Below, in pieces: positions 3,624 through 12,571 of a DNA stretch of 64,000 bases; positions within the stretch are counted from its first letter, which is position 1; the number at the start of each line of letters is the position of its first letter. The stretch comes from a phage, in NCBI GenBank assembly GCA_024790105.1, contig GCA_024790105.1_3053.1; one strand, given 5' to 3'. The notes beneath the pieces were generated by a model. That model searched no databases. It was not told the origin of the DNA and saw only the letters and a program-made list of their open reading frames with translations. A program made the position numbers and the translations under genes.

Positions 3624-3653
3624 ATACTATCACAATTCTAGGAGAAAGTAAAC
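3624..3653 (-). promoter_or_regulatory. early-type promoter module upstream of the P-loop ATPase gene
   Basis: minus strand GTTTAC - 18 nt - TAGTAT; 26-nt core tatcacaattctaggagaaagtaaac repeated at 4023..4048. Confidence 0.45.
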
Positions 3654-3655
3654 TG

Positions 3656-3958
3656 TTATTTATCTTTAATTACTTTAGCTGCTTCGATAGCCGCTTGCTG
3701 AAGGTCATCCATAGACATACCGAATTTAGAAGCAAAGTTATCAATTTTCTTTTCGACAGCATTCAAAGGCTTGGCCTGTTTACCTTCATTAGCGCCAGGA
3801 AGAGCGAGAATACGCTCTTTGTCAATATAAAGGCTTACAAGTTTCTTACGGTCTTTATCGGACAAATCATGAAATGAATGGGCCTTTTTATTTATAGCGG
3901 CTTCTAATTTACCTGCACTCACTCGCGCTTCAGTAATAAATTCTTGATATGTTTTCAT
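3656..3958 (-). CDS. internal head protein with capsid targeting sequence (IPII/IPIII-like)
   Basis: 100 aa; N-terminus MKTYQEFITEA matches the T4 internal-protein capsid targeting sequence with a following L-x-E protease site; located next to e. Confidence 0.65.
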   Translation of the reverse strand: MKTYQEFITEARVSAGKLEAAINKKAHSFHDLSDKDRKKLVSLYIDKERILALPGANEGKQAKPLNAVEKKIDNFASKFGMSMDDLQQAAIEAAKVIKDK

Positions 3959-4020
3959 ATGTTTCCTTTAAATGTAAATATTTTAATTGGTAATTGACTG
4001 TTCAAATAACTGTGAATATA

Positions 4021-4049
4021 TATTATCACAATTCTAGGAGAAAGTAAAC
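4021..4049 (-). promoter_or_regulatory. early-type promoter module upstream of the internal-protein gene
   Basis: minus strand GTTTAC - 17 nt - TG-ATAATA; repeat of the module at 3624..3653. Confidence 0.45.
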
Positions 4050-4053
4050 AACT

Positions 4054-4548
4054 CTATAGATTTTTATACGCGTCCCAAGTGCCAGTTCTAAACGTAGCAA
4101 TGACTCGTTTTGCGCGGTTAGGTGTTTGATTATACCATCTACTTTTAGCTAAGTTAACTGCTGCTTCATCCCAGCGTTTTTGTTGAAGCATACGTAAAGA
4201 ATTAGTAAATCCTGCCACACCGGTTTCTCCCATCTGGAAAACCATATTAATTAATGCACAGCGACGAACAGCATCAAGAGAATCATAAACCGGTTTTAAT
4301 TTAGCATTTCTCAGAATTCCGCGAACAGCAGCATCAACATCCTGATTAAAGAGTTTTTCAGCCTCGTCTTTGGTAATTACACCATTGCAATTACGCCCAA
4401 TAGCTTTATCTAATTCAGATTTAGCAACACTTAGTGATGGACTTTTTGTAAGCAAATGACCGATGCCAATAGTGTAATAGCCTTCTGTGTCTTTATAGAT
4501 TTTAAGTCTAAGACCTTCATCTATACGTAACATTTCAAATATATTCAT
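4054..4548 (-). CDS. e: endolysin (T4 lysozyme)
   Basis: 164 aa, [35 protein letters not shown]... essentially identical to T4 lysozyme. Confidence 0.97.
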
Positions 4549-4561
4549 AATACCTCCTAAG

Positions 4562-4582
4562 TATTTATAGAAGGTATTTATA
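4562..4582 (-). promoter_or_regulatory. two tandem late promoters (TATAAATA on minus strand) upstream of e
   Basis: plus-strand tatttata at 4562-4569 and 4575-4582 = TATAAATA on the coding strand, in the 37-nt gap between nudE and e. Confidence 0.6.
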
Positions 4583-4585
4583 AAA

Positions 4586-5041
4586 TTAAAAGAGGTTGTT
4601 CATTATTCGGTAAAGTGAAGGACCCATCACATATTGCCACTGAGTACGAGGAATAAGAGCAAAAGCGTCCATCTCTGGAATCATAACGCCATCTTTATTT
4701 TCAAAATAAGACTCGCAACGGCAATTTCTGAACATCTCATGCTCTACTGGAATCGTATAATAAAATAACTGTAAGTCTTTATTACTAGAATATTTAAATA
4801 CACCTAGGTCTTCTAGAAGGTCTGGATTATAATTGCTAAAACCGGTCTCTTCTAAACATTCTCTTCGTGCTGCATCTAATGCGCTTAAATCAGAATTTTC
4901 TACACGGCCCTTTGGAATATCCCAGCGATGTGCCATCATTCCAGGCTTACGAGAACCAGTAACCCGACCCATAAATAAATCTTTATCTTCTGTCATAAAG
5001 ATAATACCAGCTGATAGTGTTTTCATTTTAATTTCCTGCAT
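4586..5041 (-). CDS. nudE: Nudix hydrolase NudE
   Basis: 151 aa; Nudix box [24 protein letters not shown]; position immediately beside e as in T4. Confidence 0.85.
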
Positions 5042-5511
5042 TCAGTGATAAAGTTATTTAAATTTTGAGTATATTTCTTTTCATCAAAAATCTTTTGCTG
5101 TCTGCGTAACCGCCATGGCATTTCAATGAACATACGCCATATTCCTGATAATACTGCTGCTGTAAAAATATTAACAAGTATAGTTAAAAGAACCCAATCT
5201 CCTATTCTGTCCATTGGATTTTTTATAAAAAAGTAAAATACGAACGATGATATAGGAAGACTAATGATATACCACAGAAGAACCTTCTTATCTGTGAACC
5301 AATCAGCATTCGTTAACTTAGCGCGACCGTTTTGAATACATACGAACTTATCATCTGTTACAGTAAATGGCTTAGCTGCTTGATATCCCATTCTAAACTC
5401 CCTAATCAACAAATTTTTCATATCTTCGGAACAACCATTCCAGTCAACTCTATCAACTGAAATGCCATCATCCCCATCATCTAAATCATACCAGCGAGTT
5501 TTTAAAATCAT
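5023..5511 (-). CDS. hypothetical membrane protein (e.2 position)
   Basis: 162 aa with two hydrophobic helices; start/stop overlaps with neighbours. Confidence 0.5.
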   Translation of the reverse strand: MILKTRWYDLDDGDDGISVDRVDWNGCSEDMKNLLIREFRMGYQAAKPFTVTDDKFVCIQNGRAKLTNADWFTDKKVLLWYIISLPISSFVFYFFIKNPMDRIGDWVLLTILVNIFTAAVLSGIWRMFIEMPWRLRRQQKIFDEKKYTQNLNNFITECRKLK

Positions 5512-10583: not shown

Positions 10584-11216
10584 TTATTTATTACGTGAAA
10601 AAGACTGTTCTATCAATTCTGGACACTTTCGTTCTATCCATTTTCTAGCTTTTTGTGGGCTTATACCTATTATTTTAGCAGCTTTACTAACCCATCCAAA
10701 TTTAGAATAATCGATTTTAACTAATTCTTCGTAAATTTCATCAGTTAAAATCTTTTCATTAATATTTACCAGTAAATGATATAATTTGTTATCATTAGCA
10801 ATTTTAATGAATCTTTTATAGTTTCCGCCTTTACTTAAACCTAATGAAGTAATTGCAGATGATATAGTAGCCGAATTTAATAATGCGTTTAAAATTTCTT
10901 CATCACTAACATTATAACGCTTTTTATTATTTTTAATATTTTTACCAGCAAAAGTATCAGTTTGCGAGTGACAGTTTGGACATAATAATCTTAAATTTGA
11001 TTTAAGATGATTTTTGTTATTTCCATCAATATGGTCTAATTGCAGAACAATATGCTTATTTTGCCATTTTGAAATTTTACAAATTGCACACTCATATGGA
11101 AAAATATTTTCTTTTATTATTTTGTCTTTCAGCTTTCCTGTGCTAAAATTTGGGTGTTTTCCTTCAAAAATTTCAGCTAATTTAGTATCCATAATATGAT
11201 TCCCAATTATTAACAA
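10584..11216 (-). CDS. HNH homing endonuclease (paralog of 9846..10307)
   Basis: motif LDHIDGNNKNHLKSNLRLLCPNCHSQ; stop codon lies 6 nt upstream of the tRNA-Leu 5' end. Confidence 0.75.
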   Translation of the reverse strand: MLIIGNHIMDTKLAEIFEGKHPNFSTGKLKDKIIKENIFPYECAICKISKWQNKHIVLQLDHIDGNNKNHLKSNLRLLCPNCHSQTDTFAGKNIKNNKKRYNVSDEEILNALLNSATISSAITSLGLSKGGNYKRFIKIANDNKLYHLLVNINEKILTDEIYEELVKIDYSKFGWVSKAAKIIGISPQKARKWIERKCPELIEQSFSRNK

Positions 11217-11302
11217 AGGCTCTCAAGCAAGAACCCTTGATGATAGAGGGTATTAATCAGTGCGATATGAGTTAATAATAACAAATAATTCTTAAAGCAT
11301 AT

Positions 11303-11590
11303 TTACCATTTATGATAATACATATTTACGATGCATTCAAGACCCAAAGGATTCTTGAAAATATCATATTCAAGAGGACCTTTTTCTGTTTCAATAAAGA
11401 AATCAAAATTTACTGTATTAAATTTACGGTCTTCCTTCACTAATTTAACTTGAGAAGATGAACGGTCAATGTAAACCTTTTCAACTTCAAAACATGTTAA
11501 AACGCCATAATCATCAATCAAGGCTTTAGCCGCGTCTTGATCATATTTATATCCATTTTCAATGGATGATACTTTCGCATAAAGAATCAT
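11303..11590 (-). CDS. hypothetical protein
   Basis: 95-aa ORF in minus-strand operon. Confidence 0.4.
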   Translation of the reverse strand: MILYAKVSSIENGYKYDQDAAKALIDDYGVLTCFEVEKVYIDRSSSQVKLVKEDRKFNTVNFDFFIETEKGPLEYDIFKNPLGLECIVNMYYHKW

Positions 11591-11592
11591 TA

Positions 11593-11997
11593 TTAACCTT
11601 TATCAACAATAGTATGTGTATGGGCATTTACGATTTGCCACCAGTCAAAACTATCGCCAAATCGTTTTGATTTATTGTCTTCAATAATTTGGCGTAATTC
11701 ATCTTCTGTTTCAGCATACGCAATCAAATCATCATATCCACCGCAAGGATAGTAATTATCGCCTGCGAACAAAAGAAAATTTACTTTAGATGGGTCTATA
11801 TAATAATGCTCTTTAGGATATTTAGTTCCTTTCCAATCAGTTACTTCAACATAATGGTAAGAAAATCCATTTTTACTTTCAACCCAACTCCACGCTTCAA
11901 AAGGAGTATTAAAAACTCTATCAGGTATTAAATTACCTTCAAAATGAGAAGGATTTGCATAATCCCCAGCATAAACATAATATTCGTTAATATTCAT
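11593..11997 (-). CDS. hypothetical protein
   Basis: 134-aa ORF, stop adjacent to the next start. Confidence 0.4.
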   Translation of the reverse strand: MNINEYYVYAGDYANPSHFEGNLIPDRVFNTPFEAWSWVESKNGFSYHYVEVTDWKGTKYPKEHYYIDPSKVNFLLFAGDNYYPCGGYDDLIAYAETEDELRQIIEDNKSKRFGDSFDWWQIVNAHTHTIVDKG

Positions 11998-12183
11998 TTA
12001 TTCACCTTTAGAAATTTTATCCATAACGATAGCAATTAAACCAATTAAAAATGCTACTACAAGTGAAAACACATTTTCTGCTGTAGTTAATAATCCACAT
12101 ATAAATCCAACAAACATTGAAAAACTAAAAGCGGAAGCAGAAATTGCAATAGCAACATTTCGAATTAATTCACAACGTTTCAT
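11998..12183 (-). CDS. small hydrophobic (membrane) protein
   Basis: 61 aa dominated by two hydrophobic helices. Confidence 0.4.
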   Translation of the reverse strand: MKRCELIRNVAIAISASAFSFSMFVGFICGLLTTAENVFSLVVAFLIGLIAIVMDKISKGE

Positions 12184-12211
12184 TTTATTCTCCTCGGTAG
12201 TTGATAGGGTA

Positions 12212-12241
12212 ATAGTATCACAACTAAAACCCTATGTAAAC
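12212..12241 (-). promoter_or_regulatory. early-type promoter module
   Basis: minus strand GTTTAC - 18 nt - TACTAT with conserved upstream TTTCACAAAGTTG element. Confidence 0.45.
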
Positions 12242-12253
12242 AACTTTGTGAAA

Positions 12254-12511
12254 TTATTTTAAATCTTCTAATCGTTTCTTCATCTTAGAACCATTTTTAG
12301 CAATTTCTCCTGCATCGGAGCATAATGCTAAAAGTGCTTTAACTTTAGTTTGGTCTCCTTTAAAAGATGAAGGATCGACTGCAGCAGCAAGTTCTTTAAT
12401 ACGAGAGAAAAGACGCTCAGCTTCAGCTAAAGCCATTCCAAGCTTTACTTCCATGCCATGAGAAGATTCAGTAATAGTAGTTTTTGTAGCAAACTCTTTG
12501 AAAGTTTTCAT
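12254..12511 (-). CDS. internal head protein with capsid targeting sequence (ipI position)
   Basis: 85 aa; N-terminus MKTFKEFATK resembles the capsid targeting sequence; adjacent to 57B as ipI is in T4. Confidence 0.6.
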   Translation of the reverse strand: MKTFKEFATKTTITESSHGMEVKLGMALAEAERLFSRIKELAAAVDPSSFKGDQTKVKALLALCSDAGEIAKNGSKMKKRLEDLK

Positions 12512-12541
12512 TTTATTTTCCTAATTAATTTTGATGAGGTA

Positions 12542-12571
12542 ATAGTATCACTACCTCATCAGTATGTAAAC
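12542..12571 (-). promoter_or_regulatory. early-type promoter module upstream of the ipI-position gene
   Basis: 31 nt identical to the module at 12212..12241. Confidence 0.45.

Follow-up and report, generated by a model that had tools for sequence, protein, structure and literature searches.

The window analysed in this study is a stretch of 64,000 nucleotides (nt) of phage DNA (GenBank assembly GCA_024790105.1, contig GCA_024790105.1_3053.1), in whose first 12.6 kb seven copies of a short module with the design of a T4 early promoter lie between small genes, and two pairs of these copies flank genes for internal proteins (IPs). The region 3000-13500 matched 1142 phage records, nearly all of them from Tequatrovirus or other T4-like phages, at 93-96% identity, and each of these matches was split into 5-9 pieces. 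Judged by the matches, the window is a segment of a Tequatrovirus (T4-like) genome. When compared with T4, its gene order runs vs, vs.1, regB, vs.3-vs.8, ipII, e, nudE, e.2-e.6, e.8 and an extra gene, followed by rnaC/rnaD, a tRNA cluster together with segB and two HNH open reading frames (ORFs), trna.2-4 and an IP gene that is not ipI, and ends with 57B, 57A and genes 1, 3 and 2. Every one of these genes lies on the minus strand, in the early direction of T4. Three genes present in T4, namely denV (UV endonuclease V), ipIII and e.7, are absent from the window. Both denV and ipIII lie between e and vs.8 in T4, where the window has gaps at 3599-3655 and 3959-4053.

The IP genes of the window are ipII, which has 88.9% nucleotide identity to T4 ipII and lies between the modules at 4020 and 3624, and a gene for a protein of 85 amino acids (aa) at the position of T4 ipI. 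The latter is a different cassette from ipI and is identical to g142c of the Yersinia phage fPS-90; homology to T4 breaks about 30 nt into its ORF (12477) and returns at 12259. Both proteins begin with the capsid-targeting sequence (CTS) MKT(Y/F)(Q/K)EF, agree with the pattern MK(T/S)(Y/F)x(E/Q)F..E of T-even IPs and belong to IP families (Table 1). The homologue of the 85-aa protein in phage Killian (locus L001, 11353-11610) is annotated as 'MazF family toxin-antitoxin system protein', which is probably a misannotation; it matches the internal head protein PHROG.

The pattern GTTTAC-N18-TANNAT was searched on both strands of the 64 kb, with 100 dinucleotide shuffles as background. Seven exact matches were found against 0.38 expected (s.d. 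0.55), a number reached in 0 of 100 shuffles. The minus strand of the first 12.6 kb holds all seven; no match was found in the late-gene part of the window, and the sole match on the plus strand requires a 19-nt spacer. The initial annotation of this DNA, which had proposed such a genome-wide search, listed five modules. All five were recovered, although the one given as 4021 begins at 4020, and the modules at 1517 and 7527 had not been listed. Its spacer of 17-18 nt is 17 nt in all seven modules when the canonical hexamer TTTAC(A/T) is taken as the starting point, and the upstream element TTTCACAAA(G/A)(T/C)TG that it described is present at 7864, 12212 and 12542 but not at the two sites flanking ipII (3624 and 4020). 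A generic sigma-70 scan was uninformative (72 sites found and 60 expected), and only the T4-specific GTTTAC pattern was discriminating. It should be noted that the strict motif misses promoters of more distant T4-like phages, in which the lack of a match does not mean the lack of a promoter.

The modules are also similar in their surroundings. Across modules, A/T makes up 80-90% of the 20 nt that precede GTTTAC. The upstream ORF has its stop codon 0-12 nt from this hexamer, which places part of the UP region in coding sequence. Six of the seven modules have TGn ahead of the -10 (the exception is 7527), and a start codon follows 27-80 nt past the -10 in all seven. The downstream genes are regB, vs.8, ipII, e.6, e.8, trna.4 and the 85-aa IP gene. 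The -35, the -10 and their spacing, the TGn and A/T-rich UP region, and the orientation upstream of early genes all agree with T4-type early promoters, for which the published design places GTTTAC at -36..-31 (PMC1524935) and the so-called 'uber' early promoters combine UP, -35, TGn and -10 elements (PMC2988021). Orthologous sites carry the annotation 'predicted early promoter' in the fPS-90 record, and the 57B-to-ip, ip-to-trna.4 and e.8 modules are almost base for base those of T4. Taken together, the match to the T4 design, the placement upstream of minus-strand genes and the fPS-90 annotation argue for the early-promoter reading already offered by the initial annotation. A time-resolved omics paper on T4 contained nothing on the ip genes, and a literature search for maps of T4 transcription start sites returned none that was usable. 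Among the individual modules, the one at 12542, whose repeat unit, of family D1, spans 12531-12599 and whose upstream 20 nt are 85% A/T, is essentially identical to the T4 57B-to-ipI junction. The module at 7864 (61% to the reference of repeat family D1) is orthologous to the region upstream of T4 e.8, and at the position of the 3624 module T4 has the promoter of denV, which the window lacks.

Table 1. Features of the window discussed in the text (z-scores refer to folding of the modules)
Feature	Position	Strand	Details
Predicted early promoter module, 57B (acb1) / 85-aa IP gene	12542..12571	-	-35 GTTTAC, TGn, -10 TACTAT
Predicted early promoter module, IP gene / trna.4	12212..12241	-	Motif match; hybrid recombination junction
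Predicted early promoter module upstream of e.8	7864..7893	-	Motif match; carries TTTCACAAAACTG upstream element
Predicted early promoter module right after e.8 stop codon, upstream of e.6	7527..7556	-	Motif match; not in initial annotation
Predicted early promoter module, e (lysozyme) / ipII	4020..4049	-	Motif match; repeat family D5, 97%
Predicted early promoter module after ipII, upstream of vs.8	3624..3653	-	Motif match; spacer of e-to-ipIII type
Predicted early promoter module upstream of regB	1517..1546	-	Motif match; not in initial annotation; fPS-90 ortholog 'predicted early promoter'
12542-module hairpin	12525..12561 (approximate)	-	13 bp, UGAUGAGGUAGUG / UAUUACCUCAUCA; loop and 3' arm cover -10
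1517-module hairpin	1490-1546 (region)	-	z = -3.75; 3' arm holds regB Shine-Dalgarno GAGGAG
7527-module hairpin			11 bp across -10; z = -3.1
3624-module hairpin			Long; z = -2.5
12212-module hairpin			AUAGGGU/ACCCUAU spanning -10; z = -2.3
ipII, 100 aa	3656..3958	-	CTS MKTYQEFITE; phrog_7857 'internal virion protein', E = 8e-55
85-aa IP gene	12254..12511	-	N-terminal CTS MKTFKEF...; phrog_3499 'internal head protein', E = 1e-49
157-aa CTS-like gene	8062..8535	-	MKSYTQFLNEA (MKSYTQFLNE/A); TATAAATA late-promoter motif just upstream
Perfect 36-nt intrinsic-terminator repeat (D2, 100%)	8022-8057 and 8581-8616	-	Brackets 157-aa gene
57B	12584..13039	-	Directly upstream of IP cassette; Pfam Acb1 (anti-CBASS nuclease), E = 3e-60
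vs.8 + vs.7 as one ORF	2677..3606	-	304-309 aa
segB	9010..9675
tRNA cluster	9717-11216		Arg, Met, Gly, Leu
HNH-endonuclease ORF	9846..10367		In place of tRNA-Thr, Ser, Pro stretch of relatives
Second HNH-endonuclease ORF	10584..11216		At T4 tRNA-Gln position

The identity between modules goes beyond what the promoter consensus requires. The modules at 12212 and 12542 share an exact run of 33 nt (12233-12265 = 12563-12595), for which the initial annotation had counted 31, and are 86% identical over 69 nt (12201-12269 versus 12531-12599); the identity also takes in the stop codon and the last four codons (..DLK-stop) of two unrelated upstream ORFs. Similarly, the modules at 3624 and 4020 have 26 nt exactly in common and 31 of 32 positions overall, including the whole non-consensus spacer TTTCTCCTAGAATTGTGA. 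The first of these pairs flanks the 85-aa IP gene and the second flanks ipII. Since the identity covers non-consensus spacer bases and flanking codons, it points to duplication or recombination and not to convergence on a consensus.

To place the modules in relation to gene turnover, ten close relatives were compared (T4, Killian, JEP6, PD112, fPS-90, SG1, GBLB0003, OE5505, KarlGJung and BYEP01), and 57 T4-like loci from IMG/VR were surveyed, with 36 anchored on 57B and 22 anchored on e. The 57B-to-trna.4 interval holds 0-5 different CTS genes in the 36 loci, and the interval after e holds 1-4 CTS genes in the 22 loci, where denV is found before, between or after them or is absent; thus, denV behaves as a cassette inside the IP locus. 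Collinearity with the ten relatives breaks recurrently at 3599-3623, 3927-4003, 4080, 7471-7527, 7854/7918, 8024-8078 and 8577-8581, in the tRNA/HNH region, inside trna.3, and at 12201-12259 and 12477-12491. Of the ten, JEP6 alone lacks the break at 3599-3623. A module is found at most 60 nt away from 10 of the 24 breakpoint clusters, compared with 1.7 for random module placement, and six of the seven module-bearing junctions act as a breakpoint in at least one of the ten close relatives. A breakpoint histogram from 50 IMG/VR loci was set aside in favor of the ten relatives, because the ends of BLAST high-scoring segment pairs in divergent genomes reflect divergence and not mosaic boundaries.

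The structure of several junctions could be resolved to the base. At the 57B locus, fPS-90 has the order 57B-module-ipA-module-ipB-module-trna.4, and the window has ipA only. The 12212 module of the window is an exact hybrid that has the fPS-90 ipA-to-ipB module on its 5' side and the ipB-to-trna.4 module on its 3' side, with the switch point inside a shared 19-nt sequence, GTGATACTATTACCCTATC, consisting of the -10 plus the 3' hairpin arm. The same junction, with a 24-nt overlap (12201-12224), is found when the window is compared with Killian, GBLB0003, OE5505 and KarlGJung as well as fPS-90. Chimeric modules are also present in two other loci: a 'trna.4-type' spacer directly follows 57B in L034, and L026 has a half-and-half module. 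At the e locus, positions 3927-4080 align to both the e-to-ipIII and the ipIII-to-ipII junctions of T4, an overlap of 154 nt that is as expected if ipIII had been lost by crossover between the flanking module-leader-CTS repeats, and on this alignment the 4020 module is a mosaic of the two T4 junctions. These hybrid, overlapping and chimeric junctions carry more weight than the breakpoint counts and favor the proposal of the initial annotation that the repeated blocks would allow modular gene replacement by recombination. However, the zone in which crossovers upstream of the IP genes would occur is wider than the promoter blocks it had in mind. Homology to the relatives is kept across the promoter and the leader and ends 20-34 nt into the CTS codons (3927; 12477-12491), so that the upstream linker comprises promoter, leader and about 30 nt of CTS codons, and the downstream linker alone is a bare promoter module.

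Genes other than those of IPs are exchanged next to modules as well. In T4, a GTTTAC promoter stands on either side of e.7. The window has nothing in the slot that separates the 7527 module from e.6 (window 7456-7556; L002 8906-9366), which is occupied by e.7 in T4, by an ORF of 519-531 nt in JEP6, PD112, SG1 and Killian, and by an ORF of 177 nt in KarlGJung and BYEP01; the ORFs of these relatives (177-531 nt) sit at window positions 7471-7527. On this comparison the slot, which has no CTS gene, is a third variable site bounded by promoters, and the 7527 module would drive e.6 in the window and a variable e.7-type gene in the relatives. In addition, phage BYEP01 (L096 ~8434-8435) lacks a 63-nt stretch (window 7854-7918) that holds the e.8 module, indicating that a module can be lost on its own.

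Folding of the window modules was scored against dinucleotide shuffles. Five of the seven modules form a hairpin with the -10 in its loop (z from -2.3 to -4.1; Table 1), and the hairpin of the 12542 module, with a minimum free energy of -20.5 kcal/mol (z = -4.1), was equaled in 0 of 200 shuffles. Among 93 distinct module cores from T4-like loci, 57 had z < -2, always with the -10 in the loop, although the z-scores of this survey are somewhat generous because mononucleotide shuffles were used. The hairpin arms differ among the cores (GAGGTA/TACCTC, TAGGGT/ACCCTA, AGGCTCATGAT/ATTATGAGCCT, CTCCTGTAAG/CTTACAGGAG and others) and the geometry is the same; in many of the 93 cores an outer stem pairs the spacer with a downstream GGAG. 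The hairpins were considered as intrinsic terminators, but none passes a simple pattern scan and the U-tract is missing. At regB the promoter spacer is paired with the Shine-Dalgarno sequence, so that the ribosome-binding site would be masked in RNA reading through from vs.3 and unmasked in RNA started at regB's own promoter; this two-tier design recurs in many related modules. Attenuation, protection of RNA ends or masking of the Shine-Dalgarno sequence in read-through RNA are candidate functions of the hairpins.

On the basis of these results, we consider it likely, with a probability of roughly 85%, that the repeated modules are strong T4-type early promoters that double as short homology patches for gaining, losing and swapping IP genes. 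Host sigma-70 RNA polymerase would use the modules through the UP region, the GTTTAC -35, the 17-nt spacer, TGn and the -10 TA(N)(N)AT, so that right after infection each small early gene would be transcribed from a start of its own; the whole hairpin, with the -10 in its loop, would be contained only in read-through RNA from upstream. The modules would thereby be the T-even counterpart of 'promoter-early stem-loop' (PeSL) cassettes. Standing in direct orientation every few hundred bases, with exact cores of 19-33 nt, they may allow crossover by the very active homologous recombination of the phage. Such a crossover inside one genome would delete or duplicate a unit of gene plus module, and one between co-infecting phages would replace a cassette. 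At the IP genes the upstream patch would consist of promoter, leader and about 30 nt encoding the CTS and the downstream patch of the next promoter module, and the outcome would be a rapidly shuffled set of injected anti-restriction proteins. T4 is known to recombine at short homologies, and ipIII was lost in three of five experimental-evolution lines (PMC9391042).

Several points weigh against this proposal. The modules are assigned to the T4-type early promoters, but we infer their activity in this phage from the consensus and from orthology with T4. The test for co-location of breakpoints and modules is partly circular, since modules lie at the edges of variable genes, where any replacement must end. 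No significant hairpin was obtained on folding of the modules at 7864 (z = +0.95) and 4020, and the missing U-tract and the failed scan leave the 'terminator' role of PeSLs unsupported for these modules. Exchange between phages could use the long conserved flanks (57B, trna.4, e and vs.8) without promoters. Furthermore, more distant T4-like phages have their IP genes in packed arrays, with no strict-motif promoter from one gene to the next, and these genes vary nonetheless, so that the CTS or other homology must suffice in these phages; the CTS alone may be enough for IP exchange there.

One alternative is that the main substrate at the IP loci is the leader plus the CTS codons (ATGAAAAC(T/A)T(A/T)(C/T)(C/A)AAGAATTT...) and that the promoters are passive passengers. 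We regard this as doubtful, though deserving of attention. It would account for upstream homology that ends 20-34 nt inside the IP ORFs (3927; 12477-12491) and not at the promoter, and for the tandem IP arrays of the distant phages, in which the CTS is repeated with no strict promoter between. However, there is no CTS on the downstream side of a cassette, where the junction falls in the next promoter module (12201-12259, 3599-3623), cassettes other than those of IPs and without a CTS (e.7-type genes, denV) also come and go at promoter modules, and the hybrid junction revealed by fPS-90 is in the -10 core and not in the CTS. It is improbable that the modules are only promoters, which resemble one another through selection for one strong consensus, and that turnover proceeds via long flanking genes or random microhomologies. 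The identity in non-consensus spacers (TTTCTCCTAGAATTGTGA in both copies flanking ipII) and in the last codons of unrelated ORFs, the exact hybrid of two neighboring modules in the window, the chimeric modules of L026 and L034, and the use of six of the seven module-bearing junctions as breakpoints in the close relatives all argue against it, even though T4 early promoters are strongly constrained over ~50 nt (PMC2988021), laboratory deletions and amplifications of T4 use microhomologies of 6-10 bp anywhere (PMC9391042), and breakpoints also occur at promoter-free sites such as terminator repeats, tRNA ends, HNH ORFs and the inside of trna.3.

A dedicated mechanism, based on mini-circles of promoter plus gene, a hairpin-recognizing protein or co-conversion driven by homing endonucleases, appears very unlikely. 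Mini-circles have been demonstrated for the PeSLs of RB49/phi1 (PMC2839356), the hairpins are conserved in structure and not in sequence, and segB as well as two HNH ORFs can be found within 2-4 kb. On the other hand, there is no obvious recombinase or integrase, the junctions look as general recombination would leave them, with simple homology overlaps of 19-154 nt, and the widely varying hairpin sequences argue against a sequence-specific binding site.

Elements of this kind, and the idea of recombination at them, have been described before. Arbiol et al. (2010), reporting on Repoila et al. (1994; EMBO J 13:4181), describe elements of the T-even IP loci that are based on T4 early promoters, have weaker A/T-rich stem-loops and are possibly responsible for the plasticity of those loci (PMC2839356). 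Comeau, Arbiol and Krisch (2014) again connect such elements with the IP loci and list TTTACW-N17-TAYWAT as the consensus for PST/T4 (PMC4122927). The recombination idea was therefore already published, for exactly these two IP loci, by Repoila et al. (1994), as credited in both later papers. As far as these later summaries (PMC2839356, PMC4122927) describe them, the elements of Repoila et al. share with the window modules the loci (57B-ipI-trna.4 and e-ipIII-ipII-denV), the promoter base, the weak A/T-rich stem-loops and the proposed shuffling of CTS-bearing IP genes. They differ in nothing essential on that account, and the window represents another allele combination (the 85-aa IP for ipI, ipII only, no ipIII or denV).

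The PeSLs of PST/T4 (PMC4122927) resemble the window modules in consensus, in lying within hyperplastic regions beside genes in which close relatives differ, and in recombination at the elements. The stem-loops of the PST elements are just upstream of the promoter, whereas in the window and in 57 of the 93 cores the hairpin spans the spacer and the -10, often reaching to the Shine-Dalgarno sequence. The PeSLs of RB49/phi1 (PMC2839356) also unite a promoter and a stem-loop, lie between small accessory ORFs, serve as linkers in insertion, deletion and replacement, and commonly have the stem-loop in the space separating the -35 from the -10, or overlapping the -10. Near-perfect TTGACA/TATAAT hexamers, stems of G-runs and C-runs, demonstrated terminator activity and mini-circles characterize the RB49/phi1 elements, whereas the window modules have the GTTTAC -35 and A/T-rich variable stems, with no U-tracts or G/C-run stems. 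No homology to the RB49/phi1 elements, in terms of TTGACA and G-run/C-run stems, was seen in the window modules, and the authors of that study regard the T-even elements as analogues and not homologues of these PeSLs. What the modules do have in common with PeSLs is a stem-loop in or adjacent to the promoter (five of seven) and a hyperplastic location with junctions in the element.

With T4 early promoters (Liebig and Ruger, 1989; PMC2988021; PMC1524935), as far as these accounts go, the modules share the UP, GTTTAC, TGn and -10 elements and the counter-clockwise orientation upstream of early genes, and no difference in design was found between T4 promoters and the window modules, whose activity is predicted. 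Lambdoid linker sequences, integron cassettes and 'morons' are similar in that short conserved boundaries let self-contained expression units be exchanged without disturbing the neighbors, but the window has no integrase or attC-type site, and its boundaries are predicted functional promoters that general recombination would use. In every sequence-level feature that could be tested, the modules belong to the T4 early-promoter class and to the functional class of PeSL-like linkers.

A further cassette is present between e.8 and rnaC, where the 157-aa gene is bracketed by terminator repeats. Its product matches phrog_2280, of unknown function, shares only the CTS-like N-terminus with the IPs, and occurs in 512 phage records, always as 'hypothetical'. 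The same site holds a single copy of the terminator and no gene in T4, and a different CTS-like gene (187 aa, MKTYAEFLTEA) in Killian (L001 6592-7276). In fPS-90 (L091 8105-9394) both genes stand in tandem, and the annotation there includes three terminators as well as a late promoter, which is predicted. According to Arbiol et al. (2010), IP genes are confined to two loci (PMC2839356). We tentatively suggest, as a joint proposal with somewhat less than even chances, that the site from e.8 to the rnaC/tRNA cluster is a third T-even IP cassette site, with terminator linkers and the TATAAATA late promoter, and that the hairpins spanning the -10 are origin-specific translational insulators and not terminators. 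If so, read-through RNA may have a masked ribosome-binding site, and RNA from the module's own promoter, which lacks the 5' arm, may be translated.

Other deviations from T4 were observed in the neighborhood. The vs.8 and vs.7 genes are read as one ORF in the window, with two PHROG families matched end to end, and are two ORFs in T4 and every relative examined; the explanation is either a fusion of the frameshift type or a sequencing error. The tRNA cluster has shrunk to four tRNAs, with HNH-endonuclease ORFs at two positions that hold tRNA genes in relatives or T4 (Table 1). Upstream of the IP cassette, 57B matches Acb1, and the IP locus therefore adjoins another counter-defense gene.

In summary, the modules are real and the initial reading of them was correct, but they are a rediscovery of a feature already described for T-even phages. 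To this the window adds one more allele combination, a junction that is an exact hybrid, the finding that hairpins across the -10 are prevalent, and the CTS cassette bounded by terminators. T4 Ip1, Ip2 and Ip3 each disarm a different GmrSD type IV restriction enzyme (PMC12373910; PMC3012670). Since IPs are injected with the DNA and disarm GmrSD enzymes, the set of IP genes helps to set the host range, and promoter-bounded cassettes explain how this set can turn over fast without disturbing the neighboring genes. The IP locus and the adjoining 57B form a small counter-defense island, and phage engineers could take the modules as natural insertion sites that are ready for expression.

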